Shown here: piece after piece, positions 37,769 to 57,854 of the stretch
How the letters are laid out: each line of letters begins with the position of its first letter
Numbering within the stretch: position 1 is the first letter of the stretch
NCBI GenBank assembly: GCA_017467815.1
Contig: JAFUKI010000077.1
Location: forward strand, 4,797 to 68,796
DNA length: 64,000 nt
Direction: 5' to 3'
Origin: Clostridia bacterium
Lineage (GTDB): Bacteria; Bacillota; Clostridia; Oscillospirales; CAG-272
Program-made: the position numbers and the translations under genes
The notes under the pieces: generated by a model
The model's database searches: none
The model's input: the letters and a program-made list of their open reading frames with translations, nothing else
Told to the model about the DNA's origin: nothing

Positions 37769-37773
37769 ATTTT

Positions 37774-38661: not shown

Positions 38662-38676
38662 AACCGTAACCCCCTC

Positions 38677-43221: not shown

Positions 43222-43252
43222 AATATACTCCATTCTTCCGTTTGGTATCTCT

Positions 43253-43314: not shown

Positions 43315-44400
43315 TTATCCCACGATCGCAAGGGGGGATGCCGTATGGCTGCCGATATGCACCGCAGATACAAGCCGTATGCCGTCCGCCGTACCGATGT
43401 ATATGTTGGACTTCACCACGGACAGAGCATCGGTGGTGTACCAGCTGGAAGAAGCACCGTTTTCTCCATTGGTGCGCAGTCGGTACCATACAGAATTCGC
43501 ACCTGCCGGAACTGTGTCGGGATACTGCAGGGCTGTGCCGGTGTACAGAGTGATGAAATCCGTACCGTTGACGGAACGCTCCAGGGTATAGCTGACTACG
43601 GGAACCAGATCGCTCTGCACAGCTTCCCAGGATATATTAACTTTGCTTCCCGCAAGGAGCATTCCCGCAGAGAGGGCGGAGGGAGCAGTGGGACGGGAAG
43701 CACTTTGACCAATGGTCTGCACCGGTGTCTCGATTTGGGTAATGGAAACATATTGGGAATAGGAATTTGACCACTCCGCCTCGTCATAGGTGCAGTACTG
43801 CAGAACCATGTACCACTCGTACCCGAGAACATCCCCCAGCGTGCAGGTACATTCCGTTTCTCTGGATGCAGAGAGTAGAACGGTCCCCGTAAATTCCGTT
43901 TCCCCCGGCGCACGCATATAAAGGGTCAGTTTGTTCACCGCCCCGAAATGTCCTTCATCCAGCTCGGACTGGGTGACCGTCAGCGTGTTGACATGATCGG
44001 CGTACAGTTCCGGTGTAAAGGAGATGTACGGCGGAATGTCACAGTTTGAGAAATACTGGAGAAAATAGGCGGCGGAAGAGCCGGATGCCTGGAAGGTGTT
44101 CTGCACACCGGTTTTGGATTCCAAACGTACCCTCTGGGATGCATCGGGCTGATAGGGAATCATGCATACCATGGTCTCCCATCCTTCCCGCGACTCAAAC
44201 TGGTAGGTTTCGCTGTTGTAGGAACACTGGAGTCTTTCACCGGGATCCCCGACGGACGGATCATCGTATTCCGAAATCACACACAGGTACTCCCCCCAGC
44301 GCAGTACGGCATAGTTCAGATAATTGCCGTTAAGAGCATATTTCTGACTGGCTGAGTAACCCAGACAGTGCCGCTCACCGTTTGTATAGTCTAAAATCAT
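43315..44400 (-). CDS. Phage tail fibre / host-recognition protein with an FN3-like C-terminal domain
   Basis: 361 aa, last gene of the tail module. The C-terminal ..VNISWEAV..VVSYTLERSVNGTDFITLYTG.. segment is FN3-like. Confidence 0.5.
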   Translation of the reverse strand: MILDYTNGERHCLGYSASQKYALNGNYLNYAVLRWGEYLCVISEYDDPSVGDPGERLQCSYNSETYQFESREGWETMVCMIPYQPDASQRVRLESKTGVQNTFQASGSSAAYFLQYFSNCDIPPYISFTPELYADHVNTLTVTQSELDEGHFGAVNKLTLYMRAPGETEFTGTVLLSASRETECTCTLGDVLGYEWYMVLQYCTYDEAEWSNSYSQYVSITQIETPVQTIGQSASRPTAPSALSAGMLLAGSKVNISWEAVQSDLVPVVSYTLERSVNGTDFITLYTGTALQYPDTVPAGANSVWYRLRTNGENGASSSWYTTDALSVVKSNIYIGTADGIRLVSAVHIGSHTASPLAIVG

Positions 44401-44415
44401 GGATATCCCCCCTTA

Positions 44416-45129
44416 TTATTCGGAAATCAGCAGGAAAATTTCCCCTTCCGGAAGGGAATCGGGCAGGGTGTAGCCATAGCGGATGTTGCGTACCGCAGAA
44501 GCACCGGTACTGTCGCTTGCCGCCTGCAGTATCCCAGTCATCACACCGCCGGATTTCGGCAGCAGCGCTTCCGCTGTCAGTCCCCCTACCGCACCGCTGT
44601 TTTTCGCATAGGCGACATTGTCCAGACTGTCCCCCGCACCGGTAACAGGACCGCAGACCGTTTCGTCCGAGCGTCTGTCGTTGATCATATCCGCCGTCAC
44701 GATACCGCTGTTCGCCGGAACGGTAACCTCCGCCAGCAGCAGATCCCATACCTCATCATTGCGCATGGGAAGTCCCGCAGCATCTTCCGCAGCTTCCAGG
44801 GTGAAATAGCCGGATGTACGGTGCAGGCGGAGACAGATGCCGTAGGTGTGACCGGATGCAGCCGGCAGAGTGACCGTTTCCTTCAGCCATGCCATATGCC
44901 CGAAGATCCAGGCGCATCCGGGGGATACGGACAGGGTGAGCCCTTCCCCGGGGATAACGGCAAAACTGCCGTCCGCCGGTCTGATAACGCCGTCCGCATA
45001 GAAACAGCGCATCATCTGTGCGAAAAACGCAGCATCCACCGCTTTGTTGCCGCGGGGGAATCCGTCCACGGTTTCCACAATAGAAGTGGAGTCAAACATT
45101 CCTCCGTCAATTTGAATGGTCGTATTCAT
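44416..45129 (-). CDS. Phage tail fibre / baseplate upper-protein-like
   Basis: 237 aa, positioned after the Tal-like gene. The N-terminus resembles siphovirus BppU-type fibre anchors (from memory). Confidence 0.45.
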   Translation of the reverse strand: MNTTIQIDGGMFDSTSIVETVDGFPRGNKAVDAAFFAQMMRCFYADGVIRPADGSFAVIPGEGLTLSVSPGCAWIFGHMAWLKETVTLPAASGHTYGICLRLHRTSGYFTLEAAEDAAGLPMRNDEVWDLLLAEVTVPANSGIVTADMINDRRSDETVCGPVTGAGDSLDNVAYAKNSGAVGGLTAEALLPKSGGVMTGILQAASDSTGASAVRNIRYGYTLPDSLPEGEIFLLISE

Positions 45130-45144
45130 GGTAAAACCTCCGTT

Positions 45145-46185
45145 TTATTTGTTCAGTTTGCTTATCAGATGGCGTATGTCTGTGATTTCATCCCCGAAAT
45201 AGGGGTACAGCTGTTCCACGCCGTTTTCGTATACAATATCCAGTCCCGTCAGCTGTGTGCGGATGCTGATGCCCAGAGGATGGGACTGAATCTCACAGAC
45301 ATCCCCCAGATCGAATCCGCTGCCGTACCGGGGCTGGGCGTTTCCCTCGGCGGTGCAGTCCAGACGGATACGGGACGTGCATTCTCCCAGTACCTGCTGA
45401 CCTCTGGCGGTAAGGGCGGCAATATAGGTTTCTCTGTCGGGAAAATCCGCTTCCTTCAGATCTGCCGCCTTTTTGTGGATTTCCCGTATGTCTTCCTTCC
45501 CGGTGTTTCTTTCCACCGTAACAATCACACCGTCGCCGCCCTCCATGTATACCCGATTGCGGACATCTTCTGTTTGTTTTTCAAAGGTAAGGCTGGCGAT
45601 GTTGCCGAATTCTTCCGAAAAAATCGCCATTTCCGCCCTGCTGTCCCCGTCATAGGAACGGTCGGTGCCGGTGTGAAGGCGAAAGATGCCCCGGTCTGCC
45701 GTGTAGTCGTAGTCCACGGTGAAGGAGATGCCGTAAGGCTGCAGATTGCTGTACAACCAGTCCCCAAGAGGTTCCCAGCTGCCGGAGAAGGTGACTTCGG
45801 TATCAATCACCGGCTGATCCGCCCCGATTTCCACCGGCAGAGAGTCCAGCGTGTCCTGCAGTACCGCAAGAACCACATCGGTAACGGTACCCGAATAGGT
45901 AACATTTCCGCGAAGGAGCCGGTCGGACAGCAGACACTCCAGCATCCTGCCCCTCAGTTCGATCCCATCTTCCTTTACGGAAACATATTCGATCCTGCCG
46001 CAGTGTTTCCTGTCGCAGAGATAAACCGCCGCAGAAGCAATGGCAGCGATGGTACTGTCACATCCGGGGAAAACCACCGTAAACGTGCCGCAGGAATAAT
46101 ACCGCAGGGACCAGACAACGGATGTCATGTTGTCCAGAGGCGTGTTCAGCACCGCAAAATTTTTATCCAGAAAATATAGTTCCAT
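45145..46185 (-). CDS. Siphovirus Gp37-like / tail-associated (Tal-like) protein
   Basis: 346 aa. The N-terminus MELYFLDKNFAVL..SVVWSLRYYSCGTFTVVF is typical of the ReqiPepy6 Gp37-like family. It follows Dit. Confidence 0.6.
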   Translation of the reverse strand: MELYFLDKNFAVLNTPLDNMTSVVWSLRYYSCGTFTVVFPGCDSTIAAIASAAVYLCDRKHCGRIEYVSVKEDGIELRGRMLECLLSDRLLRGNVTYSGTVTDVVLAVLQDTLDSLPVEIGADQPVIDTEVTFSGSWEPLGDWLYSNLQPYGISFTVDYDYTADRGIFRLHTGTDRSYDGDSRAEMAIFSEEFGNIASLTFEKQTEDVRNRVYMEGGDGVIVTVERNTGKEDIREIHKKAADLKEADFPDRETYIAALTARGQQVLGECTSRIRLDCTAEGNAQPRYGSGFDLGDVCEIQSHPLGISIRTQLTGLDIVYENGVEQLYPYFGDEITDIRHLISKLNK

Positions 46186-46194
46186 ACATCCTCC

Positions 46195-47070
46195 TTACAG
46201 CCCGAAATACAGGGGCGTGCAGAACAGACGGACGGAAAGATAGTCCGAACCGCTGTCTGCGGAGACACTGATCCGGTTTTCGCCGGGGGAGAGTAAGAAG
46301 AAATCGCTGGTACGGTCAAAGAGGAATTTTCTTTCCCCGTTGAGCAGTACGTTTTTCTTCCCCGGACGGGTATCAATTTCCGCCGTATCCCCATCCTGCA
46401 GTGTGGTCAGCAGACGGATGTATTTGTCCCCGCAGGTCAGACAGGGATTTTCCACAATCCCGCCGGAAGCTGTCAGCACCGCCGTCATACCGCATTCCGC
46501 ATCCCCCGGATTGATCATGGTCACACTGTCCGCAGTACGGGTATAGCCGGTGGTCATGCCGGTGTTTTCCATAAAGTTCAGCGGGAAGGTCATCAGGGGA
46601 ACGGTTTGCCGGAAAGCACTTTCCACAGGTTCGGCACTCCGGTAGAAGGGTTCGGGGGCGATAAAGGTTAAGGTCACCTGCAGGGGAGAAAAGAATGTAT
46701 CCTTGGTGAGCAGGGGGACACCGTCGGGGATCACGGTGATCAGTCGGGATACGCCGTGCATCCGGATCTGCATTTCGATCTCAGAGAGGGGATTCATAAG
46801 CCGGATGATCCTGCGCCGTATCGCCCATTCTTCCGTATCGGAACCGGCATTCAACTCCGCGTGCATGGTCATATGTCTCTCCCCGAAACGTCTGCTGATG
46901 GGATGACCGCCGGGCAGACCTGCGTAGGGTTTGGTTTCCACCGCAAGGGGCGTGATGCCGAATCCCTCCAGTCCTTCCTCCAGTATGTGCATATCCGCAT
47001 CTTCGGAGGATGAGGCTGTCAGCGTAACATCCTTCCCGGATAAACGGATTTCGTAATATGTATTTGTCAA
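46195..47070 (-). CDS. Distal tail protein (Dit, phage tail family)
   Basis: 291 aa with a TTG start 6 nt after AAAGGAGG, immediately after the tape-measure gene. Confidence 0.65.
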   Translation of the reverse strand: MTNTYYEIRLSGKDVTLTASSSEDADMHILEEGLEGFGITPLAVETKPYAGLPGGHPISRRFGERHMTMHAELNAGSDTEEWAIRRRIIRLMNPLSEIEMQIRMHGVSRLITVIPDGVPLLTKDTFFSPLQVTLTFIAPEPFYRSAEPVESAFRQTVPLMTFPLNFMENTGMTTGYTRTADSVTMINPGDAECGMTAVLTASGGIVENPCLTCGDKYIRLLTTLQDGDTAEIDTRPGKKNVLLNGERKFLFDRTSDFFLLSPGENRISVSADSGSDYLSVRLFCTPLYFGL

Positions 47071-47082
47071 AATGTACCTCCT

Positions 47083-47865
47083 TTACACACGCAGCATGGC
47101 TTCGCTTTCCCGGCGTATGGCACGGGCGGTGGCATAGGGGGAGGTGTCGCTGTCTCTGAGATAGATGTTCTGAACAACATGACCGATACCGCTTTGGCTG
47201 TCTGCGGAACCGGACAGAGCGGTACGCTGACCTGCCTGCGCCAGAGAAGCCTGAATATAGCGGCTGCCGTCCAGAATTCCTTCGGCAATCCCTCTGGAAA
47301 GCATAACACCCACTTCCTCTTTCATCATTTTCGAGGGAGAAGCGATGTCGTATACTTTTTTGGCTGTTGTCATGGTCTGGTCGGAAACTGTGCGTATGGC
47401 TGCCGTAACCGCACCGGCAGAAGCAGTGATCCCGGCGGCAATTCCTTCACTGATGGACGAGCCGACGGAATACCAGTTCCCGTCAAAAGCGTTTCTGATC
47501 CGGTCTGCCGCGACCTGGGCAGCGTACACCAGAGCATTGATCCGTTCCGTGAATCCGGTGGTGATGCCGGCTGCTCCGTTTGCACCTGCGCCGCGCCAGT
47601 CTGCACTGCCGAATGCAAGGACAGCCCCTCCGGCGGCAGAAGCACTCTGTTCGTACACCTTTGCCGCCATCCCTTCCATAGCGGACATAACGGCGGAGAT
47701 GATAAGCAGCATACCCGTATCCACACCGGAAGAAGCAACTGCTGTCTGTACGCTTGCCCGGAGTCTGCCGGACAATGCGGCAAGCTGCGTTTCCAATGCG
47801 CCGATCTGTGCTGTAAACTGTTCTGTATCCAATTCGGCTGCGATGATTACCGATCCGTCTGCCAT
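47083..47865 (-). CDS. Tape-measure-like protein, unusually short (260 aa)
   Basis: Ala/Gly/Ser-rich helical protein in the canonical position between the chaperone genes and Dit. Confidence 0.6.
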   Translation of the reverse strand: MADGSVIIAAELDTEQFTAQIGALETQLAALSGRLRASVQTAVASSGVDTGMLLIISAVMSAMEGMAAKVYEQSASAAGGAVLAFGSADWRGAGANGAAGITTGFTERINALVYAAQVAADRIRNAFDGNWYSVGSSISEGIAAGITASAGAVTAAIRTVSDQTMTTAKKVYDIASPSKMMKEEVGVMLSRGIAEGILDGSRYIQASLAQAGQRTALSGSADSQSGIGHVVQNIYLRDSDTSPYATARAIRRESEAMLRV

Positions 47866-48443
47866 AATGATTCCTCCGTTTCTTTCTTGGATTTATGTGA
47901 ATGTCTGATGCGTACCATGGCTTTGGCACGTCTTAATTTTCTGCGCAGTTCTTCATCCTTAACCTCACTCAGATCCATACAGCGCAGTGCCGCGGTTCTC
48001 ATAAAAGCGCAGTCCGGCGGAAGGGCGGTAAGCAGGGCGAGAAACTTCCACCAGTGCAGGGTACATTCCGTCAGGTCGATACGGTATACCTGCAGAAACG
48101 CGCCGTAGATCTGATCCCCGTCCCAGACGAAATCGAATACCCCGCCTGCCGGCAGATTTTTGGAAACTGTCGGTTGTTCCGTACCTGCGCTGTCGGCGGC
48201 ATCTCCCCTGTAAAAAGCCAGAATGGCGGCAAATAATCTGTGGGGATCCACGGCTGGCAGATCATCACCGCAGTACAGCCACAGCCCCAGCTTCATCCGG
48301 GAAAGATTGTCAAGGGTGTCGTCCTTGGCAAGTTCACCGAAAAGGATCCCTGTCTGATAGTCCGTGCGGATGGGGACACACACGCCGTCAACCGTGACCG
48401 AGTAAGGCAGGGGGTGGGTCAGGACGGATGTGTGACGACTCAT
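47847..48443 (-). CDS. Phage Gp15-family protein
   Basis: 198 aa. The sequence resembles the Phage_Gp15 family (from memory). It has an ATGA overlap with the upstream gene. Confidence 0.55.
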   Translation of the reverse strand: MSRHTSVLTHPLPYSVTVDGVCVPIRTDYQTGILFGELAKDDTLDNLSRMKLGLWLYCGDDLPAVDPHRLFAAILAFYRGDAADSAGTEQPTVSKNLPAGGVFDFVWDGDQIYGAFLQVYRIDLTECTLHWWKFLALLTALPPDCAFMRTAALRCMDLSEVKDEELRRKLRRAKAMVRIRHSHKSKKETEESLWQTDR

Positions 48444-48832
48444 GCGCCGGCTCCGTCCATACCCACGGGCGTTCTGCTGAGATGAATGGCAAGGGCACGT
48501 TCACGGAAACGCTGTTCCGCTTCCATACGGATGTCCACCATCGCCTGCATCTGGGCTTCCACAAAGGTGACGAAGGATACGAAAGCCCTGGTATGACTTT
48601 CCGCACTTTTCATCAGTCCGCAGATCTCCCCGGCGGATTCTTCGTCAAAGAGAATATTGAAAAAACGGCGGATATCATTGCACTGTGCGGCGATCTTCTG
48701 GGCAGGAGAAACATCCCCTTCCGCCGGTTTCTGCTCCATACTGAGCAGTGCTTCGGTCAGCCGGTACATACAGCCTTCCTCACTGACATCGAACCAGTAA
48801 TCCGTGTCATTGTAATTCCAGTTTTTGTTCAT
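48440..48832 (-). CDS. Putative tail assembly chaperone
   Basis: ATG at 48832 follows AGAAAGGA (MNKNWNYNDTDYWF..). The track start at 48934 runs into repeat copy 5. Confidence 0.5.
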   Translation of the reverse strand: MNKNWNYNDTDYWFDVSEEGCMYRLTEALLSMEQKPAEGDVSPAQKIAAQCNDIRRFFNILFDEESAGEICGLMKSAESHTRAFVSFVTFVEAQMQAMVDIRMEAEQRFRERALAIHLSRTPVGMDGAGA

Positions 48833-48863
48833 AGATAGTCCTTTCTGAGTGTTGTTGCATTTA

Positions 48864-48948
48864 GCAGGGGGATGGAGAAAAACTTTTTGAAAAAAGTCTT
48901 TCTCCATCCCCCTGCACCCCCTTCCTCTTTTCAAAAAACTTTGAAAAA
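48864..48948 (+). repeat. Dispersed hairpin repeat, copy 5 (inside the tail module, antisense to the genes)
   Basis: GCAGGGGGATGGAGAAAAACTTTTTGAAAAAAGTCTTTCTCCATCCCCCTGC plus a TTTTCAAAAAACTTTGAAAAA tail. Confidence 0.9.
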
Positions 48949-48965
48949 GGTTACTGTATAAAGTT

Positions 48966-49172
48966 TTATGAAACGGGGGAGGCTTTGCGATTCTGAATGT
49001 GTGTTTCCCATTTTTCCAGCCACAGGAAGATTTTCGTCAGGAGGGATTTCAGGAGCTTGCACAGCTGCAGGAGAAATTCCATCCAGTTCATGATTTTTCT
49101 GACTGTGGGGTTGGAATACTGGGGATCATTGGTCTGTTCGGGGGTGAAGCCGGTATCTGTCTGTTCCGTCAT
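48966..49172 (-). CDS. Small ORF after the major tail gene (68 aa, unknown)
   Basis: ATG lies 3 nt after the major tail stop. The ORF ends at the edge of repeat copy 5, so it may be a truncated remnant. Confidence 0.35.
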   Translation of the reverse strand: MTEQTDTGFTPEQTNDPQYSNPTVRKIMNWMEFLLQLCKLLKSLLTKIFLWLEKWETHIQNRKASPVS

Positions 49173-49175
49173 GGC

Positions 49176-49667
49176 TTATACCCCTTCTGTGAATACGGCG
49201 GTGGAGAGAACGAATGTGCCGGATACGCCGTCGGATACGGATTTCAGGGTTCCGGTGTACAGAAGTGTATCCGTACCGGAGCCGCATTCATCGGGAATAA
49301 CGGAATAGACACGGCGGCGTGCGCGGCAGATGCCGGATGTGCCCGTTTCGTCGAACAGATCCACGGTGCAGATCTCCACCTGTGCTTCTTCGCCGGTACG
49401 TTCATAATCGGTGATGCTGCGCAGTTTTTCGATCACCGGATTGCCCTTGTATACTTCAAATTCGTATTCAATGGTGGGGGCATAGCCGGTTACATCGGTG
49501 CGCTTGGAGGCTTCGTGGATGTATCGTCTCTGATAACTTACCGCATTTTTGGATTCGGTAAAGTCCGTGAACCCTTCCCCGATCAGACTCCATTCCGGCG
49601 CATCGGCGGTTGCGATATTCATATAATGCCGTCTGGCGGCACGATTGACAATGGATGTTGCTGCCAT
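49176..49667 (-). CDS. Major tail protein
   Basis: 163 aa with an AAAGGA SD. Position and size fit siphovirus major tail proteins. Confidence 0.65.
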   Translation of the reverse strand: MAATSIVNRAARRHYMNIATADAPEWSLIGEGFTDFTESKNAVSYQRRYIHEASKRTDVTGYAPTIEYEFEVYKGNPVIEKLRSITDYERTGEEAQVEICTVDLFDETGTSGICRARRRVYSVIPDECGSGTDTLLYTGTLKSVSDGVSGTFVLSTAVFTEGV

Positions 49668-49691
49668 AATGATTCCTTTCTGTGTGTGGTT

Positions 49692-50099
49692 TTATTGAGA
49701 TACATGGTATTCCAGTACAAAAGCCGCCCTGTATTCTTCCGTTCCGTCCTGCCATACCGATGCTTTTGCCGGAAGGGTGGTCTGGCGGATTTTGGTGAAT
49801 ACCTTTCCGTTTTCATCCGGGGGCAGATGGGCGGAGAGCCAGTCGGTCAGGCTTTCAAACTGCCCCAGAACCGCTAATTTCCCAGCAGGGGATGCGCCGT
49901 CCGTGTACAGGGATACCCCAAAAGGGAACTGTCCGGTGTAGGAACCGTCGATGTATCTTTTGATCTGGCGGCTGGCGGAGAGGGCAGTGATCACCCCGCC
50001 CGGAACCTTTCCTTCCGTTTCCGGGAGAAAATCCCACGGACGGTCCTCCCAGGTGTTGAGTAAAGTGCATAAAGCGTTGAGGATGCTTTTTTCTTCCAT
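49692..50099 (-). CDS. Tail-completion / minor capsid-family protein
   Basis: 135 aa with an AAAGGAG SD, in the head-tail joining block. Confidence 0.5.
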   Translation of the reverse strand: MEEKSILNALCTLLNTWEDRPWDFLPETEGKVPGGVITALSASRQIKRYIDGSYTGQFPFGVSLYTDGASPAGKLAVLGQFESLTDWLSAHLPPDENGKVFTKIRQTTLPAKASVWQDGTEEYRAAFVLEYHVSQ

Positions 50100-50103
50100 A
50101 TCG

Positions 50104-50442
50104 TTAAAACTCCTTTCCCGTCAGTGCTTTTGCCGCTGTCTGCCGCCACAATTCCAGATCCACAGCTTTGGCGGCTTCAAACCATCCTGCCTGGGCAAGG
50201 GGGTGTTTTTCTCTGGAAAAAGGTCTTTTGGCATAGTAGCATTTCTGTGCATGATCGGCAGTCCATGCTACCCCTTCCTCCGTAATGCTGCCGGATGCGG
50301 CAAGAGCGCCTGTGCGGTAGGGGACGTAGGGCGTGCTGGAATCCAGAACTGCCTGACGCATGGCTTGTGCGGCGGCTTTTGCACGGCTGGTGATGGCGTT
50401 CATAACCGAACCGGTGCTGAACTGCATGGTAAAATGAACCAT
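50104..50442 (-). CDS. Head-tail joining protein (HK97 gp10-like / minor capsid family)
   Basis: ATG at 50442 follows AGGAGG (MVHFTMQFSTGS..). Confidence 0.5.
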   Translation of the reverse strand: MVHFTMQFSTGSVMNAITSRAKAAAQAMRQAVLDSSTPYVPYRTGALAASGSITEEGVAWTADHAQKCYYAKRPFSREKHPLAQAGWFEAAKAVDLELWRQTAAKALTGKEF

Positions 50443-50450
50443 AGTACCTC

Positions 50451-50795
50451 CTATGCCATGCATTCCAGCCGATAATGCTCCACTCTGTCACTGCCGGTCA
50501 GATAGGGCGTGATTTTCATGACCGTCCAGCCTGTCTTATCATCGGGACCGAAGTACAGCTTGTCTCCGGGGGCAAATCCGACGGCGGAAAAAGGAAGACT
50601 GCCGCCCGACTGATCGGTAAGTCTGCTGAAACGGGGGAAGAAATACACTACGGCACTGCATTTGTGATGTCCCTTTTCCGTCATGGCGGCGCTGCGGAAG
50701 ACCACGGTTTTATGGGCTGTATATTCTTTGTATACCGGTATAAAGCGGCTGTCGTAGCCCAGAAGATGCCTGAGTACAATCTGATCTGTACGCAT
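50451..50795 (-). CDS. Head closure / minor capsid-family protein
   Basis: 114 aa with a GAGGAGG SD. Confidence 0.5.
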   Translation of the reverse strand: MRTDQIVLRHLLGYDSRFIPVYKEYTAHKTVVFRSAAMTEKGHHKCSAVVYFFPRFSRLTDQSGGSLPFSAVGFAPGDKLYFGPDDKTGWTVMKITPYLTGSDRVEHYRLECMA

Positions 50796-50804
50796 ATTTC
50801 CTCC

Positions 50805-51143
50805 TCAAATCCACTGATTCAGCAGACCGGCGTGGGACAGGGTGAGTATGGCATAGGGACATACCTTCACACCGTACACGGAAAGCGCCGGCATACGGTA
50901 TTCCACCCGGTAATCCCCCAGACTTTCGGCGGCAAGACCTGCACTGTCCCCGTTTCCGGCGATCTGATCCGTCTGCAGACAGACAGCACAGCGGATGGCG
51001 TCTTCCTTTTCCGGATAATCCGCCGGGTGACGGGGCAGCAGAAGATGTGCGATCACCGCTTCCGCCGCCTTGGAGTGCTGTAAGAATTCTTCTTCCGTCA
51101 GCCCACCGCCGTATTCATTTTTGTAATACGTATAATCCGTCAC
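50805..51143 (-). CDS. Head-tail connector-like protein
   Basis: GTG at 51143 lies 7 nt after AAAGGAG (VTDYTYYKNEYGGGLTEEEF..). The track ORF extends into the capsid gene. Confidence 0.5.
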   Translation of the reverse strand: MTDYTYYKNEYGGGLTEEEFLQHSKAAEAVIAHLLLPRHPADYPEKEDAIRCAVCLQTDQIAGNGDSAGLAAESLGDYRVEYRMPALSVYGVKVCPYAILTLSHAGLLNQWI

Positions 51144-51156
51144 GGCAAATCTCCTT

Positions 51157-52278
51157 TTAACCCATGTAGCGTACAGCCAGCTCAGGATAGAGGGGCATGA
51201 AGCTGTAGAGCACATCCATGGAAAGAATGTCCTTCTTACGGTTGATGTCATAACCGCGTACCACACGGAGGGAGATACCGTTGTGGGTGGTTACATAGGA
51301 TTCCACGCCGGCAGGTGCAGCCAGAGGACGGGAAACGAAGGCGAAGGCATTGGGATGGAAAATCAGGTTGGCTTCGTGGGTAGGCAGGACCTCAACGGTA
51401 CCGTTCAGAATGCCGCTTACGGAAGTGGGCATGATCGGGAAGGTAACGGAGGTGCTTGTAAATTCCACATTGTCGGCGGCGATGACATAAACCACGGAAC
51501 CGTCCTTCTTGGTGATCTTGAGAATATCGCCGAGGTTGATGGTTTTGTCGGGGGCGGAGGAACAGGTCAGGGTCAGGGAAGTACCGGCAAGGGTGGTGAC
51601 GATGATGTTGGCGGAAGAACCGGCGAGGGTACCGGAAACATGGGTGGGTACAGCCTGGCTCATGTAGTTTTCCAGACCGAATACCTTACCGATGGAACCG
51701 GTGCGCAGAGCCTTGGAGGAACCGCACTGATCCGCATTGATAAGCGCCGGAATCTGCTTCAGCTGGCAGGCGGTACGGGGACTCCAGAGAGCGCATCGGT
51801 TGTCGGTGGGAACCCCTGCCTTGTCCAGCGCATAAACGGCTTCGGCGAAATCGCTCAGATCGGACGGAGGTGTACCGGGCGTACCGACCACGGTAGAGGC
51901 AGTGCAGTAAAGCATCATACCGTCTCTGTTGATTTTCTCTGCCAGAGCAGCGGCGGCAGGTTCCAGAAACAGTCTGGTCATGTCATCAAAGCTGCAGGCA
52001 CTTTCGAGGGCGGAAACTTCCACATCCACAGTGGCGATGTTGGCAAGGGGTACCTCTACGGTTTCCTCAACGATGGACTGGGGGCTGATGGTGTCGCCGT
52101 TGAAGAAATCATTGGCGGTCAGCTTTACGGGACGGCGGATCACAACGGTATCCCCCTTCTTGGCGCTCTGGTGGTCCCCCAGATCCTTGTAGACCAGATT
52201 GGGGAATACCAGATTGTCCATCAGTCTGGGCAGGGTTTCTCTTGCGATCTGCTTGGCGGAATATAAACTGTTGTACAT
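51157..52278 (-). CDS. Major capsid protein (P22 gp5-like coat family)
   Basis: 373 aa following the scaffold gene. The N-terminal region is typical of P22-type coat proteins (from memory). Confidence 0.75.
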   Translation of the reverse strand: MYNSLYSAKQIARETLPRLMDNLVFPNLVYKDLGDHQSAKKGDTVVIRRPVKLTANDFFNGDTISPQSIVEETVEVPLANIATVDVEVSALESACSFDDMTRLFLEPAAAALAEKINRDGMMLYCTASTVVGTPGTPPSDLSDFAEAVYALDKAGVPTDNRCALWSPRTACQLKQIPALINADQCGSSKALRTGSIGKVFGLENYMSQAVPTHVSGTLAGSSANIIVTTLAGTSLTLTCSSAPDKTINLGDILKITKKDGSVVYVIAADNVEFTSTSVTFPIMPTSVSGILNGTVEVLPTHEANLIFHPNAFAFVSRPLAAPAGVESYVTTHNGISLRVVRGYDINRKKDILSMDVLYSFMPLYPELAVRYMG

Positions 52279-52317
52279 AAATAATCTCCTTTGTCAGTCA
52301 AGTGTATTGTGTTTGTC

Positions 52318-52740
52318 TCAGAAACGGCGGACGAAGCGGTAGTACTCCGCATCGGTCATGCTTTCCGGGTCGGCAAAGGGAGTGCCGTGGGAAGTGCCGG
52401 TGGCGATCTTCTCCTTATCCCCGGTGTTGTGGAATAAATAGGGATCGCTGACACGGAGCTTGTCCAGCTGTTCGTTCAGACCGTGAATACCGTCGTTGTC
52501 CATGGTAATGGCGGACATATCCAGTACCTTGGCGGCAAGCGACGGATTTTTGGCGCCCATTCTGGTCAGGGCGTACTTGGTTTCGTGTTCGATCTGCATT
52601 TTCTGCAGGTCGGCGGTGTGGTTTTTCTCCATGAGACGGATCTGTTCCTGCAAAGCTGCCACTTCGGGGGAAACATTTTCCTCTGCTTCGGATACCGCAC
52701 CGGTTTCTTCGGCGGCGCCTGTCATGTTGTTTTCTTCCAT
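52318..52740 (-). CDS. Scaffolding protein
   Basis: 140-aa acidic helical protein between portal and capsid. ATG at 52740 lies 10 nt after AAAGGAG. Confidence 0.65.
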   Translation of the reverse strand: MEENNMTGAAEETGAVSEAEENVSPEVAALQEQIRLMEKNHTADLQKMQIEHETKYALTRMGAKNPSLAAKVLDMSAITMDNDGIHGLNEQLDKLRVSDPYLFHNTGDKEKIATGTSHGTPFADPESMTDAEYYRFVRRF

Positions 52741-52778
52741 GTGCAAAAATCTCCTTTCTGATCGGCATATTATCCGGC

Positions 52779-54152
52779 TCAGATACCGTTATGCCATTTT
52801 CTTTTGAATTCTTCCGCGGACAGAAGTCCGGCTTCCACTTCGCGCAGATCCCGGCTTCTTTCGGATTCCGTATCCACGAAATAGCTGTCGTCATACCGTA
52901 CAGCCACAGGGGTCGTGCTGTCCATGGGCAGGCGGAGTATGTATTCCCCCAGCCACAGAACCGGTCTTACGATGCCGTACAGAAATGCGGTCATGTTCTG
53001 CTGATGCTTGCTCAGATTCTGCCGCATATCCTGCCGTTCTCCCATGTACTGGGTGGCGGTAAGCTGTGCTTTGCCCTGTACGCCGGAGAACAGATAATGC
53101 CTTGTCCCCAGACCGCACCGGAAGGACAGATAATCCAGCTGTGCCTGCAGGGCATCACGGTTTTCCTCGGAACGGAGACTGGGATTGTGTTCGGTGATCA
53201 TGGGCGTTTCCGCCAGATCCCCGTCGCCGATGGTTACAAACAGCTGCTGCGCCACATCGTCCGGGGTGTACAGATTCCCTTCGCTGTCCCGGTTGACCAA
53301 GGACTGGTTGATGAATACCTTCTTGCCGCCCAGTTTCAGGTCACGGCAGAAATTGTTGAATGCCAGATCCACACCCTTCAGACAGTCGATGGCATCGGCA
53401 AAAATGGACTGTCCCAGACCGCATCCCTCGTCCACGGCGTTGTGGATGTTGGGGGTCAGAATGCTGAAGAAGGGGTACGGACAGCCGGTGCGGATCTCTC
53501 TCGGCGGCATTTTGGGGTATTTGACCTCCGTCAGCCTGCCGCCGTTTTCTTCCGCGTAATAATGGTTGCGGATCACATACCCGTCGTCTTCTCTGGTGTG
53601 GATCTCCACATAGAGTGCCTTTTCTCCGCGGGTACGGATTTCGGAAATGAATGCCGCCTCCGTGATCCTGCCTTCCTCCACGGAAATGGGCAGAATATGT
53701 CCCGCATCCACAAAGTCGAAGGAGAGGGAGAGGGGCATCTCAGCCGCTTCGGTCAGATTGCCGCACCCGACGGGCAGACCGTGGACACGCAGCAGACAGG
53801 CACCGCTTCCCAGAGCAAAAGCCTTTTCCACCATATGGTTGCATCTCCGCCAGAAATCGGTCTGGGAGAGAAGGATCTGCAGCCATTTTTCCGCGGCAGG
53901 ATCGGCAACCTGAAGATAGGTCTTGTCGTTGAACAGCAGGGAAGCCCAGTCTTCGCATACCTTTTTCGCCATGTGCAGACGGTACATTTCCCGCTTGACC
54001 GGACGTCCGAAGGAAGCGTTTTCCCAGTATTCGTGGAAGGTATGCTCCTTCCCCTGCCACCAGCTCTGCCAGATGTCGATCATGCGGTAGATCCCCGTGC
54101 CCGCTGTGCAGCCGTACTGCTGACCGATCAGGTCTAAAATTTCGTTTCGCAT
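52779..54152 (-). CDS. Portal protein
   Basis: 457 aa, immediately after the large terminase. Confidence 0.8.
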   Translation of the reverse strand: MRNEILDLIGQQYGCTAGTGIYRMIDIWQSWWQGKEHTFHEYWENASFGRPVKREMYRLHMAKKVCEDWASLLFNDKTYLQVADPAAEKWLQILLSQTDFWRRCNHMVEKAFALGSGACLLRVHGLPVGCGNLTEAAEMPLSLSFDFVDAGHILPISVEEGRITEAAFISEIRTRGEKALYVEIHTREDDGYVIRNHYYAEENGGRLTEVKYPKMPPREIRTGCPYPFFSILTPNIHNAVDEGCGLGQSIFADAIDCLKGVDLAFNNFCRDLKLGGKKVFINQSLVNRDSEGNLYTPDDVAQQLFVTIGDGDLAETPMITEHNPSLRSEENRDALQAQLDYLSFRCGLGTRHYLFSGVQGKAQLTATQYMGERQDMRQNLSKHQQNMTAFLYGIVRPVLWLGEYILRLPMDSTTPVAVRYDDSYFVDTESERSRDLREVEAGLLSAEEFKRKWHNGI

Positions 54153-54178
54153 AAATTGTTCCTTTCTGGTAAAATTGA

Positions 54179-55492
54179 TCAGACTTTCCCCATATACCGT
54201 TCAATGGCATATTCCATAGCATCCAGAATGTCTATGTCCGAGGTAAAGTCGTCTTTCCGCCTGTCCGCGCCTTCCGTGTCCTCCCAGACCGCCTCCGCAA
54301 GTCCGGCAGCCAGCTTCGGACAATCCGGAGTGAGATGAAAACGACCTGCACTCATCAGTCCGTTCACGAAAGCGATACGATCGGTGATGGGACGCTTGGC
54401 ACAGTCGGATACAATGAGTCCCTCACTCCCGGGGATGGACCGGCGGAGACCGTTGATCAGATACTGTGCTTCGCTGTCGCAGAAAACATAACGGATGGGC
54501 AGTCCGGGGTATTTCTCATGCAATGCGGCGAGAAAGGCGAGGAATTCTCTGTTGATGCGCCCCGGATCAATATCCCCTTTGTTCCCCTGTACTGCCTTTT
54601 CACCAATGGCGATCACACCGCCGGAGAGGGGAAATCCCACAGCGGCAAACACGGTTTTGGAACGGTTTCCGCCGAAGTCCACGCCGATGTTGCAGAATTT
54701 CATGGGCGGCAGATCCGCTGTCTGCAGCAGGAATTTCTCCGGTGCATCGGCAAAACTGCGGTAGATCAGCCCTTCAGCCGCACAGCGCTGTCCCAGTATA
54801 TCCCGACGGTACCATACGGATGCTTTGTCGTACTGCGCCTCGATTTCCGCAAGACGCTCTTTCGTGATCACGGGATTGTCCCGGATGGTGAAATGGGCGT
54901 AATTGCAGAAACCGGGGGAAGTGTCGGCAGTGTAGGGATCAATGTACTGCCGGTAAATGAGGGCGGAGGGGGAAGTGGGGTTCAGATCCCAGAAGATCTT
55001 CCGTCGGCGGGCGGCAAGGGTTCGGTTGAAGGCCTCTTGAATAAAGCTGTCGTGGTGGTGGTTGATCTCCGTTGCGAGCCACATTCCATACGAGTTTCCG
55101 CGGATCCGCTTGTAGGCATCCGCATTTTTTCCGCCGGCGAACAGAACCACCTTCTCACCGTTTTTCGTCTGAATACGCAGACATTCGTTATCCTTATACC
55201 GACCCCAGGTACACCTGCCTCTGAAAATCCTTTCCAGACCCAGACCGTTGCAGTCCCCCAGATTGAGTTTGGCATTGCCGATGGTGGAACCGGATGCCAG
55301 ATGAATCCGATCCGGCGTTTCCTCCAGTGCGGCGGCAAAGACAAATACATTGTCCACCGTCTTCCCGGCACGTACCGCCCCTTCGGCAATATTTATGGTG
55401 CAGTCCAGAGCACGCCGCATATACCTGCGATGCTTTTCCCCGAAACAATACCGGGGATCTTCATATTGCCCGGACTTTTCCGCATCCGTCAT
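54179..55492 (-). CDS. Terminase large subunit (PBSX family)
   Basis: 437 aa with a Walker A-like AVRAGKT and a family-typical sequence including the C-terminal nuclease region. Confidence 0.9.
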   Translation of the reverse strand: MTDAEKSGQYEDPRYCFGEKHRRYMRRALDCTINIAEGAVRAGKTVDNVFVFAAALEETPDRIHLASGSTIGNAKLNLGDCNGLGLERIFRGRCTWGRYKDNECLRIQTKNGEKVVLFAGGKNADAYKRIRGNSYGMWLATEINHHHDSFIQEAFNRTLAARRRKIFWDLNPTSPSALIYRQYIDPYTADTSPGFCNYAHFTIRDNPVITKERLAEIEAQYDKASVWYRRDILGQRCAAEGLIYRSFADAPEKFLLQTADLPPMKFCNIGVDFGGNRSKTVFAAVGFPLSGGVIAIGEKAVQGNKGDIDPGRINREFLAFLAALHEKYPGLPIRYVFCDSEAQYLINGLRRSIPGSEGLIVSDCAKRPITDRIAFVNGLMSAGRFHLTPDCPKLAAGLAEAVWEDTEGADRRKDDFTSDIDILDAMEYAIERYMGKV

Positions 55493-55527
55493 ATTTCCGC
55501 TTCCTTTCCGTTTGCTTCATTCTCCCA

Positions 55528-55908
55528 TCATTCTTCCTGACGGAATACCTCCTCCCGCAGTGCCGCAATTTCCGTACTGGTTTCCGCCGCCGCAAATCCC
55601 TGAGCCGGATTCAGACGTACATCCTTCCACAGCTCAAAATACAGCTTGATTGCCGGAATGCTGCCGTCGCGTGCCAGAGAGAGCAGATGCTCCCAGACTT
55701 CCGCGGCGTACATCCCGGCATATTCTCTCGCCAGCTGCACCACAGCCGAACCGAATGCCGCATCCCTGAGCCATGCCAACATATCCGCTTCGGGCACATC
55801 CGTACGGGACAGGGCTTTCTCGATCTGTTCCCCGGCTGTCTGTCCTCTGAAGCTGTTTTCGATGACCGCATTGGCAGTGTCAATTTGTTTTTCCGTCGTA
55901 TCGCTCAC
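55528..55908 (-). CDS. Putative terminase small subunit / HTH packaging protein
   Basis: 126 aa directly upstream of terL. The start is uncertain because GTG at 55908 abuts the AAAGGAGG SD. Confidence 0.45.
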   Translation of the reverse strand: MSDTTEKQIDTANAVIENSFRGQTAGEQIEKALSRTDVPEADMLAWLRDAAFGSAVVQLAREYAGMYAAEVWEHLLSLARDGSIPAIKLYFELWKDVRLNPAQGFAAAETSTEIAALREEVFRQEE

Positions 55909-55924
55909 CTCCTTTCGTGCCTAT

Positions 55925-55953
55925 AGTATAACATCCCGAACATTTGTTTGTCA
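55925..55953 (-). promoter_or_regulatory. Candidate late-operon promoter
   Basis: Minus strand reads TGACAA (55953-55948), 17 nt spacer, TGtTATACT (-10 at 55930-55925). Confidence 0.5.
55938..55949. promoter_or_regulatory. LexA-like box (GAAC-N4-GTTT variant) in the late-promoter spacer
   Basis: + strand reads GAACATTTGTTT, one mismatch from GAAC-N4-GTTC. Confidence 0.4.
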
Positions 55954-56092
55954 TCCCACAAAAATACCGGCAGCGTGCAGGAAAAAGTAGCAGAAAAGTA
56001 TCAAAAAAGTGGTATCCCCCTCAAAAAATGCATAAAAAAAGACCGCCTGACATACAAGCAGCCTAAATAAATCCATATTCCTATTCCATATA

Positions 56093-56158
56093 CCCCTTTT
56101 GAAGTTTTTTGAAAAGAGGGAGGGGGGAGAATCGCTTCGCAAATCTCCCTCCCCCTTC
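56093..56158 (-). repeat. Dispersed hairpin repeat, copy 6 (degenerate)
   Basis: CCCTTTTGAAGTTTTTTGAAAAG module plus a GAGGGAGGGGGGAGA..TCTCCCTCCCCC hairpin with a divergent loop. It starts 5 nt after the regulator stop. Confidence 0.7.
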
Positions 56159-56162
56159 TAAA

Positions 56163-56552
56163 TCAAACCGTCCGACCAAATAAAGCCAAAGTAAACCGGC
56201 TGTATGCTCTGCGTCGGATTCTGTAGAAGGAACTGCGTTCTACGTGCAGTTCTTCGCATATATCCTCAATGCTCGCACGGGAGGATTTGGTGGCATAGGC
56301 AGTGAGAATGGCTTTCTCATCCGGTTCCAGGGTAGCCAGAGCAAACTCCAGTGCCCGTACCTTTTTTGCCAGCCGACGGCGGTTGTCCTCACATTCCGGC
56401 GATCCGTCATCCCACATATTCTGCAGTGCATTTCTCAGATATGGCAGTTCCTGCAGCAGAGAAATCGCCTGTTTCTGTAATGTCAACGCCTGATCCGTTT
56501 TTCTTGTTTTCATCGTTTCTTTGGTTGCGTTTGTCTTAATGGTAGTGCTCAT
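56163..56552 (-). CDS. ArpU/RinA-like phage late transcriptional activator (sigma-70 region-4-like HTH)
   Basis: 129 aa. The C-terminal ..SIEDICEELHVERSSFYRIRRRAYSRFTLAL is typical of ArpU/RinA/DUF1492-type regulators. It is the first gene of the cluster. Confidence 0.6.
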   Translation of the reverse strand: MSTTIKTNATKETMKTRKTDQALTLQKQAISLLQELPYLRNALQNMWDDGSPECEDNRRRLAKKVRALEFALATLEPDEKAILTAYATKSSRASIEDICEELHVERSSFYRIRRRAYSRFTLALFGRTV

Positions 56553-56593
56553 CTGCCATCATCCTTTCTATGGTATTGTTTGTACGTTGAAAA

Positions 56594-56607
56594 AGAACAT
56601 CCGTTCT
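56594..56607. promoter_or_regulatory. LexA (DinR/Cheo) box 1
   Basis: AGAACATCCGTTCT, 9 nt downstream of the -10 and over the expected transcription start. Confidence 0.75.
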
Positions 56608-56616
56608 GCTTTGATT

Positions 56617-56645
56617 AGTATACCACAAGGGGATGCGTTTGTCAA
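56617..56645 (-). promoter_or_regulatory. Sigma-A promoter of the regulator gene
   Basis: Minus strand reads TTGACA (56645-56640), 17 nt spacer, TATACT (56622-56617). Confidence 0.75.
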
Positions 56646-56653
56646 TACCAAAA

Positions 56654-56667
56654 AGAACATATGTTCT
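56654..56667. promoter_or_regulatory. LexA (DinR/Cheo) box 2
   Basis: AGAACATATGTTCT, a perfect palindrome 8 nt upstream of the -35. Confidence 0.8.
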
Positions 56668-56765
56668 ATCATTCTTCCCCGGATTTTGTCCTGCAGGGGG
56701 ATTCTCATAGCCAAATCCGGCTTTTATTCCCCGAAAAACATCTCTGTCCTGTCTCAAAAACAGCA

Positions 56766-56794
56766 TTGCAATCCTACAGTGATTATGTTATAAT
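56766..56794 (+). promoter_or_regulatory. Sigma-A promoter of kdgK
   Basis: TTGCAA (56766-56771), 17 nt spacer, TGtTATAAT (-10 at 56789-56794). Confidence 0.7.
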
Positions 56795-56822
56795 AAAAAT
56801 AAAAACACAGGAGTTTTATCAT

Positions 56823-57854
56823 ATGGTAGTATGTTTTGGGGAACTGCTGCTGCGGTTGTCGCCGGCGGGGAGAGAACGGCTGGTGCAGGCAGATACATTT
56901 GAAGTAAGATACGGCGGTGCAGAGGCGAATGTGGCTGCGGCTGTGGTGATGTTCGGCGGAAAGAGCCGGTATGTTACCAAGGTGCCGGACTCCGTGATCG
57001 GGGAAGCGGCTGTACAGAGCGTCAGACGGTACGGCGTGGATACGGACGGGGTCGTGCGCGGCGGAGAACGGCTGGGGGCATATTACCTGGAAAAAGGCGC
57101 TTCCTACCGTCCCTCCAAAGTCCAGTATGACCGGAAACATTCTGCCATCGCAGAAGCCGGACGGGAAGATTTCGATTGGCAAAAGCTCCTCGACAGCGCC
57201 GATTCCTTCTTCTTTACCGGCATCACTCCGGCTGTGTCCGACCCGGAAATTCTCATGGATGCGCTGAAACTCTGCAAAGAACGGAATATCCGCGTGTACT
57301 GTGACCTGAATTACCGTGCGGCACTCTGGTCTGCGGAAGACGCCGGACGGATCCTCGGAAAGATGATGCCCTACGTGAATGTGTGCGTCGCCAATGAGGA
57401 ACACGTCCGCCTGCTGTTCGGCATCACACCGGACGAAGATCTCACCGATGAAGAAGACCGTCTCGGGGATATCGGTAGGAAAATGACGGAAACCTTCGGA
57501 TTTGCCAAAGTGGTTCTGACTCTGCGGGAGAGCATTTCTTCCGACGATAACGAAGTTGCGGCTGTCCTGTACGAAAACGGCGCGCTGTATAAATCCTCCC
57601 GGTATAAAGTACATATCGTTGACCGGGTAGGCGGCGGAGATGCTTTGTCTGCTGCCCTGATTTACAGCGAATCCCCGGATGTGAAGGACAAAGTGATCGA
57701 CCCGGCGGACAGAGAAGTGCAGATCGACTTCGCCTGTGCTGCCAATGCACTGAAACACTCCATCGAAGGGGATATCTGTATCGCAGATGCCGGAGAAGTA
57801 AAGAAAACCATGGAAATCGCAAGAAGCGGCGGACGCGTACGGCTGGTCCGCTGA
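56823..57854 (+). CDS. kdgK: 2-dehydro-3-deoxygluconokinase (PfkB-family sugar kinase)
   Basis: ATG at 56823 follows CAGGAG. MVVCFGELLLRLSP..RYGGAEANVA and a C-terminal DRVGGGDA motif. Confidence 0.85.
   Translation: MVVCFGELLLRLSPAGRERLVQADTFEVRYGGAEANVAAAVVMFGGKSRYVTKVPDSVIGEAAVQSVRRYGVDTDGVVRGGERLGAYYLEKGASYRPSKVQYDRKHSAIAEAGREDFDWQKLLDSADSFFFTGITPAVSDPEILMDALKLCKERNIRVYCDLNYRAALWSAEDAGRILGKMMPYVNVCVANEEHVRLLFGITPDEDLTDEEDRLGDIGRKMTETFGFAKVVLTLRESISSDDNEVAAVLYENGALYKSSRYKVHIVDRVGGGDALSAALIYSESPDVKDKVIDPADREVQIDFACAANALKHSIEGDICIADAGEVKKTMEIARSGGRVRLVR

Follow-up and report, generated by a model that had tools for sequence, protein, structure and literature searches.

LexA-type operators at the head of a compact phage-derived gene cluster suggest SOS control of a gene transfer agent-like module in gut or rumen Oscillospiraceae

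Which protein controls a phage-like gene cluster when no phage repressor gene lies between its flanking host genes? The question is raised by 64,000 nucleotides (nt) of a Clostridia bacterium (Oscillospirales, CAG-272; contig JAFUKI010000077.1), which are analyzed here and called the window. A cluster of about 13 kb lies on the minus strand at 43315-56552. It contains packaging, head, and tail genes only, and all 19 genes are intact. The first gene encodes a small regulator, and its promoter, P_reg, is bracketed by two palindromes of the Cheo/DinR type that Gram-positive LexA binds. An earlier note on this DNA had proposed that the host SOS repressor directly gates a late-gene activator here. 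Our analysis favors the reading, with a probability of about 70%, that host LexA directly gates a gene transfer agent (GTA)-like particle cluster, the occupancy of the boxes by LexA being predicted from the DNA. DNA damage probably triggers the production of phage-like, possibly gene-transferring particles in this gut or rumen Oscillospiraceae bacterium, a reading adopted since dozens of related species share the wiring.

The operator-promoter region of the regulator gene covers 56594-56667 and is composed as follows.

56654-56667, no strand: LexA (Cheo/DinR-type) box 1, AGAACATATGTTCT, a perfect AGAAC-N4-GTTCT, 8 nt before the -35
56645-56640, minus strand: -35 hexamer of P_reg, TTGACA, found by promoter scan and kept in the related loci L005, L008, and L012
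56622-56617, minus strand: -10 hexamer of P_reg, TATACT, after a 17-nt spacer, with a TG extension just upstream of it
56594-56607, no strand: LexA box 2, AGAACATCCGTTCT, a perfect AGAAC-N4-GTTCT, 9 nt after the -10, kept in the sister species

The window sequence was rechecked, and the coordinates and spacings given in the earlier note for the boxes, the -35, and the -10 are exact to the base. The promoter scan gave P_reg a consensus match of 11/12. On the minus strand, box 2 reads AGAACGGATGTTCT (56607-56594) and is followed by a 41-nt leader that contains the ribosome-binding site GAAAGGA and ends at the ATG at 56552. If transcription starts 7 nt past the -10, box 1 would occupy about -57 to -44 and box 2 about +4 to +17. 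Together with a third box inside the spacer of the terS promoter, described below, the two boxes have the promoter-blocking placement of LexA-type operators. The perfect motif AGAACN4GTTCT is found at two sites in the window, both at P_reg, where 0.04 would be expected; none of 100 dinucleotide-preserving shuffles held at least two. The core GAACN4GTTC is found at four sites, and the other two lie within coding sequence (rplO at 13848; a minus-strand open reading frame (ORF) at 30824).

The boxes were then compared with operators of lexA itself. A position weight matrix (PWM) was built from perfect boxes upstream of 74 metagenomic Firmicutes lexA genes, at loci that are Bacilli-like (59-100% identity to B. 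subtilis LexA) and not Oscillospiraceae; these operators served as a positive control. Boxes of the GAACn4GTTY type were found within 200 bp upstream in 72 of the 74, with at least two boxes in 47, and the consensus of the matrix is AGAAC-A-n-n-T-GTTCT. Scored with this matrix, whose Bacilli-like motif may not be that of the host, box 1 reaches 21.4 bits and box 2 reaches 19.1 bits (training median 19.9, range 12.8-24.2). They are the two best matches in the window; the next, at 13.4 bits, is in coding sequence. The boxes therefore score like operators upstream of Firmicutes lexA genes, which verifies the match to the Cheo/DinR box. In Firmicutes generally, the motif bound by LexA is well defined (PMC3998124). 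Clostridial LexA operators are GAACn4GTTC or GAACn4GTTT, and those of C. difficile lexA, recA, and ruvC are of the GTTT type, as validated by surface plasmon resonance (PMC4234289).

Conservation in sister species was examined through the orthologous promoters. All close relatives are metagenome-assembled genomes (MAGs), and exact or near relatives of the regulator were found only in a few metagenome assemblies and one GTDB genome, the Oscillospiraceae MAG SIG697 (assembly SVTO01; locus L012), whose portal protein is 86% identical to that of the window. The regulators of L008, L005, and L012 are 91%, 80%, and 77% identical to that of the window. In all four loci the elements follow one another as box, -35, 17 nt, -10, and box, and all GAAC and GTTC arms are intact. 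The N4 spacers of the four promoters all differ (ATAT/GGAT, GAAT/AGAT, AAGT/AACC, and ATTT/ATAT), and the flanks carry many substitutions and indels. Conserved arms with diverged spacers and flanks are the signature of selection on a protein that binds GAAC-N4-GTTC. DNA looping between boxes 1 and 2 is not supported, as the centre-to-centre distances are 60, 60, 56, and 57 bp in the four species and the helical phase is not kept.

The comparison was then carried to the family as a whole: more than 1,400 relatives of the portal protein occur in MAGs of Clostridia and Oscillospiraceae. A portal-based scan with one genome per species gave 80 loci, and in about 45 of these the entire cluster is present, equally compact and with its gene order unchanged. 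In 42 collinear loci, the 1.3-kb head regions hold 33 perfect GAACN4GTTC sites in 52.9 kb, with at least one box in 20 of the loci. The rest of these loci holds 12 perfect sites in 766 kb, 7 of them at a detached regulator operon. Among 40 compact clusters, 19 have a perfect box and 29 a GAACn4GTTY-type box. Among 63 full-size phage relatives (portal identity below 51%, contigs up to 45 kb), the numbers are 1 and 4. This difference, 29/40 vs 4/63, illustrates how a host can gain control of a domesticated phage. The logo of the family box, A-GAAC-R-n-r-Y-GTTC-[G/T], is the RNRY spacer pattern of the Cheo box. The motif does not change between clusters whose regulators share only 23-34% identity, and it is also present in clusters without an adjacent regulator (L094, L026, and L037). 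This constancy despite the divergence or absence of the regulator favors a conserved host factor over a protein encoded by the element.

The boxes of the relatives lie in the -35/-10 spacer, over +1, or at both positions, and four architectures were distinguished. The window clade has a box upstream of the -35 and a box over +1. The second architecture is TTGACA, GAACn4GTTC, TATAAT, and a further GAACn4GTTC, followed by a small zinc-ribbon protein, the regulator, and terS. The third has a single box in the spacer of the terS promoter (ggATGACA, box, TGnTAnAAT), and the fourth is a separate LexA-boxed operon of zinc-ribbon protein and regulator, several kb from terS. All four are repressor-like. 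The zinc-ribbon protein is Cys-rich and about 70-90 amino acids (aa) long. It stands first after the LexA-boxed promoter and ahead of the regulator in most relatives, in about 20 loci (for example L092:2688-2912 on the minus strand, L040:1693-1965, and L042:6989-7336), and could be a co-regulator. The gene is missing from the clade of the window.

Between P_reg and the structural operon, the following features were found, the third box and both terminators being absent from the account of the earlier note.

56163-56552, minus strand: 129-aa regulator with a putative C-terminal sigma-70 region-4-type helix-turn-helix (HTH), of the Ltr (RinA/ArpU/LtrA/LtrB) kind, from sub-threshold hidden Markov model (HMM) matches and phrogs
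56113-56159, minus strand: GC-rich hairpin directly past the regulator stop codon, folding energy -27.6 kcal/mol, z-score -3.3
56033-56064, minus strand: intrinsic terminator with a 10-bp stem and U7, hairpin 56064-56040, -13.7 kcal/mol, z-score -4.5
55925-55954, minus strand: P_terS, the late-operon promoter, ATGACA (55954-55949), 18 nt, and TATACT (55930-55925) with a TG extension, directly upstream of the terS-like gene
55938-55949, no strand: third LexA-type box with one arm mismatch, GAACATTTGTTT on the plus strand and AAACAAATGTTC on the transcribed strand, filling the P_terS spacer

The two terminator hairpins and the separate P_terS of the structural operon indicate that the regulator is a separate, monocistronic transcription unit. 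A hairpin with a T-run between the regulator and terS is also seen, by eye on the alignment, in L012 and L005. P_terS and box 3 are identical in these same two loci, which are the two sister species with sequence for this region, and the architecture of P_terS is likewise found in L026, L033, L037, and L094. Box 3 is of the GAACn4GTTT type, as in the C. difficile lexA, recA, and ruvC operators (PMC4234289).

The earlier note had called the regulator ArpU/RinA-like. The first cluster gene after P_reg encodes a small regulator, probably of the sigma-region-4 type, directly upstream of terS. The likeness stands at the superfamily level; at the family level it does not, as all HMM matches are below the curated cut-offs: ArpU (TIGR01637) 25.7 bits vs 43.1, RinA (TIGR01636) 18.6 vs 31.9, sigma70-ECF (TIGR02937) 19.1 vs 42.9, and DUF1492 (PF07374) 20.2 vs 21.5. 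A distant homologue (L092:2271-2630) passes Sigma70_r4_2 with 26.8 vs 25.7. The regulator also matches phrog_36 and phrog_248 ("transcriptional regulator" and "transcriptional activator"). An AlphaFold2 model made from a seven-sequence alignment is all-helical with five helices (pLDDT 82). Its last 60 or so residues superpose on region 4 of SigD, SigE, and SigH with a root-mean-square deviation of about 2 Angstrom and a TM score of 0.66-0.77 (normalized to target length), but with E > 0.2. The nearest viral models are proteins of about 130 aa named "ECF sigma", "transcriptional activator", or "DUF1492", with a weak E of 2e-3 or worse, and a search of PDB sequences with a profile of the regulator family had no significant match.

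Late activators of the Ltr superfamily, namely RinA, ArpU, LtrA (Sigma70_r4), LtrB (DUF1492), and LtrC, activate terS promoters (PMC3753634). Like them, the regulator is a small protein of the 110-140-aa range, with a putative sigma-region-4-type HTH, encoded immediately upstream of terS, and in phages such a protein is the sole factor needed to fire the terS late promoter. The gene order, from regulator to terminators to P_terS to terS, is also of the Ltr type. From its HMM, phrog, and structural features and its position directly upstream of terS, the regulator fits the Ltr superfamily, at the superfamily level only, and would activate P_terS. A phage activator is made from an early/replication transcript after the loss of the repressor, whereas the promoter of the present regulator is itself a LexA-type operator.

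The genes downstream of P_terS and the host genes on both sides are listed below.

56823-57854, divergent from the regulator: PfkB kinase gene, a host flank; a GH106 glycosidase gene lies on the same side
55528-55908, minus strand: small-terminase-like protein, 126 aa, HTH_Tnp_1_2 30.5 bits, directly upstream of TerL
54179-55492, minus strand: large terminase (TerL), Terminase_3 and phrog_2
52779-54152, minus strand: portal protein, phrog_533, E = 2e-81
52318-52746, minus strand: scaffold protein, phrog_194
51157-52278, minus strand: major capsid protein of the P22-coat type, P22_CoatProtein and phrog_283
47847-51266, minus strand: head-tail adaptor, minor capsid, tail completion, probable tail tube, and Gp15-type tail chaperone (phrog_541, phrog_556, phrog_3266, phrog_3099, Phage_Gp15)
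47083-47865, minus strand: tape measure protein, unusually short at 260 aa, matching only C-terminal parts of tape measure profiles of 1100-1680 positions
43315-47070, minus strand: Dit, Gp37-type tail protein, 237-aa virion protein, and 361-aa Ig-like-domain protein, the end of the cluster (SPP1_Dit, Sipho_Gp37, phrog_9534, phrog_10993)
42226-43233: radical SAM enzyme gene, the next past the cluster end, a host flank

Past the radical SAM gene lie PHP, EamA, and DUF1934 host genes (37112-39450, 4-6 kb from the cluster), and the ribosomal-protein operon in the same window indicates that the DNA is chromosomal. No integrase, CI/Cro-type repressor, replication, or lysis gene was found between pfkB and the radical SAM gene or in the adjacent ORFs. 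The statement that no phage repressor gene is present is confirmed in this way for the interval between the flanking host genes, where tblastn also gave no LexA/S24-like protein. The tape measure equivalents of L092, L094, and L095 are 259-263 aa. Tail length follows the tape measure at about 1.5 Angstrom per residue, and by this rule 260 aa implies a very short, fixed tail of about 40 nm.

The nature of the cluster follows from several comparisons. An intact temperate prophage would have an integrase, a repressor, a replication module, and a lysis cassette, and the cluster is without them. A phage-inducible chromosomal island (PICI) has an integrase, a primase or replication initiator, a master repressor, and helper dependence; none of these was found, and the cluster has complete capsid and tail modules of its own. 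The gene content is that of a GTA: the cluster encodes packaging, head, and tail functions, has no genes for integration, replication, or lysogeny, and lies between host genes. The same holds for L092, L094, and L095, where the precomputed Pfam annotation shows the same 17-18 genes between housekeeping genes (pyruvate kinase, nusA/rimP, MatE) and no mobility, lysogeny, or lysis genes. The ratio of nonsynonymous to synonymous substitution rates (dN/dS) is 0.06-0.30 for every cluster gene between the window and L012 or L005. The dS of the cluster is 0.57-2.3, with two short genes saturated in the L012 comparison, and for most genes it is near that of the flanking pfkB and GH106 (0.94-1.19). L012 has the same flanks as the window, and the cluster stands beside PHP, EamA, and DUF1934 host genes in 12 distant loci, some of which have these genes placed between a LexA-boxed regulator operon and the terS operon. 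Purifying selection, host-like dS, and a shared neighbourhood are what vertical inheritance of a GTA predicts. In IMG/VR, no contig that carries a relative with a portal identity of 51% or more is longer than 14.2 kb; contigs of relatives with 39-46% identity reach 30-45 kb. Gene content, dN/dS, synteny, and this size pattern together support the reading as a GTA-like, incomplete phage. In the best reading, the cluster is no prophage but a 13-kb GTA-like module that is inherited vertically and maintained by selection, and it would produce particles with a cargo.

Several observations weigh against LexA control of such a module. A tblastn search (B. subtilis LexA; E. coli RecA, UvrB, DinB, and RuvB) of the window and of relatives' loci amounting to about 2.2 Mb found no homologue of lexA, recA, uvrB, dinB, or ruvB, and that the host possesses LexA is assumed from phylum-level knowledge. 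No head-region box is recognizable in 11 of the 40 compact clusters. The two boxes are 56-60 bp apart in the window clade but 32-37 bp apart elsewhere, a variation that supports no specific cooperative or looping geometry. The regulator is below every curated family cut-off, and its structure matches have E > 1e-3. The TerS-like protein has an HTH-type match, unlike reported GTA small terminases (PMC12946183), and no lysis genes were found in the cluster, so that particle release is not accounted for. Every part of the earlier interpretation that sequence can test nevertheless held up.

The absence of an observed lexA homologue of this organism also leaves room for another protein on the palindromes, either the cluster's own regulator, which would combine autoregulation with recognition of the late promoter, or a different host factor. 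The boxes are at both the regulator and terS promoters, where an element-encoded regulator would also act. However, such a protein is expected to co-vary with its operator, and the same motif is found with highly diverged regulators and where none is adjacent. The positions in the promoter spacer and at +1 are repressor-like, whereas Ltr-type proteins are activators, and by PWM the boxes are indistinguishable from operators upstream of lexA genes. This explanation is quite unlikely. Chance palindromes, or boxes that serve the divergent pfkB sugar-kinase gene, deserve almost no weight. The boxes do lie inside the 270-bp region shared with pfkB, whose promoter is TTGCAA-17-TATAAT at 56766-56794, but they are about 100 bp upstream of its -35, the chance expectation is the low one given above, and the cluster keeps its boxes in L005, which lacks pfkB, and in dozens of loci where the neighbouring genes differ.

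Two further explanations accept the LexA boxes as real and differ on the cluster. It may be an inert prophage remnant that makes no particles and whose regulation is vestigial, a reading to which the missing lysis, replication, and integration genes lend some support, as does the short tape measure, which can be read as truncation; the particles themselves are a prediction from the genes. We regard this as unlikely, given 19 intact genes under purifying selection with dS of 0.6-1.5, near that of the flanking host genes, the same gene set in about 45 species-level genomes with the 259-263-aa tape measure kept, the conserved boxes and promoters, and the GTA-like packaging observed in Ruminococcaceae and Oscillospiraceae (PMC12946183). 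A helper-dependent satellite (a PICI or capsid-forming PICI) with a LexA-controlled packaging operon, as in operon I of the Staphylococcus aureus pathogenicity islands (SaPIs), is very unlikely. LexA control of a terS-containing operon is known exactly for SaPIs (PMC3152322), and the size of about 13 kb is similar. The cluster, however, has no integrase, primase/replicase, Stl-like repressor, or att-type boundary, it has housekeeping flanks in several contexts, and, unlike capsid-forming PICIs, it has a full tail module. Vertical descent, and not mobility, is suggested by its dS, which is like that of host genes, and by its conserved neighbourhood on the chromosome.

With direct gating by host LexA as the preferred reading, the following mechanism is proposed. 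In the undamaged cell, LexA dimers would sit on the two high-affinity Cheo-type boxes, one at the upstream edge of a near-consensus sigma-A promoter and the other over the start site. This strong repression of P_reg would shut off the putative 129-aa sigma-region-4-type late activator, whose gene would act as its own transcription unit with two terminator hairpins at its end. P_terS, which would drive the packaging-head-tail operon, would be repressed weakly, with a weak -35 (ATGACA) and a weaker GTTT-type box in its spacer. Upon DNA damage, RecA-stimulated self-cleavage of LexA would free both promoters. The activator would accumulate and, with LexA gone, fire P_terS, and the whole packaging-head-tail operon would be transcribed. 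The outcome would be a coherent feed-forward AND-type gate, suited to a costly and probably lethal programme, in which the host repressor occupies the place of a phage repressor and early cascade.

PBSX, a defective prophage of B. subtilis, is an SOS-inducible, non-infectious phage-like particle that packages host DNA, and its late genes need the sigma-like factor Xpf. It has about 28 kb, a contractile tail, its own repressor Xre, and its own lysis genes. The logic of SOS induction and a sigma-like late factor proposed for the cluster is shared with PBSX; the cluster is without a repressor and lysis genes of its own. In SaPI operon I of S. aureus, a LexA box directly represses the terS-containing morphogenesis operon, and RinA is not required, according to Ubeda et al. 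2007 as cited in PMC3152322. What the two have in common is a LexA-type box of the Gram-positive kind on the promoter of an operon that contains terS, within a phage-derived element of the chromosome. SaPIs, however, are mobile, have their own integrase, replication genes, and Stl, and borrow helper virions, whereas the cluster has no mobility genes, has a complete head-and-tail set, and would place LexA first on an intermediate activator. The temperate tectivirus GIL01 of Bacillus thuringiensis is silenced through SOS boxes in its promoter by host LexA and not by a CI-type repressor (PMC4551915). It differs as a replicating linear-plasmid prophage that needs the co-repressor gp7 to stabilize LexA; the cluster is non-replicating and has no identified gp7 equivalent.

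Among GTAs, RcGTA (GafA) and the Caulobacter GTA (RogA, GafYZ) share with the cluster a head-tail gene set of about 13-15 kb, a short tail, vertical inheritance, and the lack of replication and integration genes (PMC9632790). Their logic also runs from a repressor to a dedicated activator to a structural operon, and RogA is LexA-like in fold. These alphaproteobacterial GTAs differ in phage ancestry and host phylum; RogA has no catalytic residues and is not the SOS repressor, whereas the cluster uses a genuine SOS operator motif. GTA-like packaging of 4.6-8.9-kb host DNA fragments has been reported in Ruminococcaceae/Oscillospiraceae with no regulator identified (PMC12946183). FpGTA of Faecalibacterium, from the same paper, is like the cluster in its compact terS-terL-portal-capsid operon without mobility genes and in its general group of gut anaerobes. 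FpGTA I is 10.5 kb with ten ORFs, podovirus-like, and has a second operon for baseplate and lysis; the cluster is siphovirus-like (Dit, Gp15, tape measure). FpGTA looks like a different lineage, and that paper mentions neither LexA nor any regulation of FpGTA (PMC12946183).

Each of the components is known: LexA on SaPI operon I (PMC3152322), LexA as the GIL01 repressor (PMC4551915), Ltr activators (PMC3753634), and repressor-activator control of GTAs (PMC9632790). In the literature, no report was found of LexA operators directly heading a GTA-like cluster or of the regulation of gut Clostridia GTAs, and a search for LexA in Faecalibacterium or Oscillospiraceae gave nothing useful. A 2026 report describes GTA-like packaging of host DNA as the way in which capsids most often mobilise DNA in Ruminococcaceae and Oscillospiraceae of the human gut (PMC12946183). 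The proposed cascade would be shaped like the RogA-GafYZ circuit of Caulobacter, but with the genuine SOS repressor. Dominant commensals would then be driven to make particles, and possibly to transfer genes, by SOS-inducing drugs and gut stresses, a concrete hypothesis that is cheap to test. More tentatively, at slightly less than even odds, the locus may hold the master switch for siphovirus-derived GTAs that form a widespread and still uncharacterised family in gut and rumen Oscillospiraceae and relatives, in which LexA replaced the phage repressor and early cascade during domestication and DNA damage, including that by antibiotics, directly licenses a subpopulation to make particles with host DNA. 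If this is true, GTA-like packaging in the gut anaerobes would have its first regulatory mechanism, and no earlier GTA would have been wired directly to operators of LexA.

Minor observations were also made around the two promoters. A run of five T follows each box on the transcribed strand (GTTCTTTTT; window 56590-56594 and 56650-56654), likewise in L008 and L012, and may be an operator extension or a bendable flank. The 76-aa ORF at 56536-56766 on the minus strand, a gene call in L001/the public assembly, is probably spurious: it spans both boxes and the promoter, is uncalled in L005 and L008, and has no family match. The 63-aa ORF at 55951-56142 on the minus strand, also called in the public assembly, is a probable annotation artefact that spans the terminators, is not conserved, and has no family match. 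An Rfam scan of 55300-56900 gave only sub-threshold microRNA noise on the terminator hairpin, so the leader has no known RNA element. The element tcGAACgaatnatGAACnnnnnGTTGGa recurs at a distance of about 20-60 nt upstream from the terS promoter box (L094:8190-8250, L037:8175-8235, L092:8195-8222, L013, and L018) and could be an activator binding site or extra LexA-like half-sites. In its place, the window clade has CTTTTyTGmyACTTTTCTGCwAC conserved at about 55975-56000.

Outside the promoters, the rplO site (ribosomal protein L15, 13848-13859) is the perfect core GAACGCTCGTTC and is regarded as a chance or coding-driven match, not an operator. In L092 (2271-8664), L035, L030, and L033, the LexA-boxed regulator operon is separated from the terS operon by the host genes PHP, (beta-lactamase), EamA, (MatE), and DUF1934, and this split multi-locus layout resembles known GTAs. 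A perfect GAACGnATGTTC, which encodes KEHSFF, lies inside the coding sequence of the detached regulator in three species (L092:2370, L035:2413, and L030:3975); it may reflect coding constraint only or be an internal operator.

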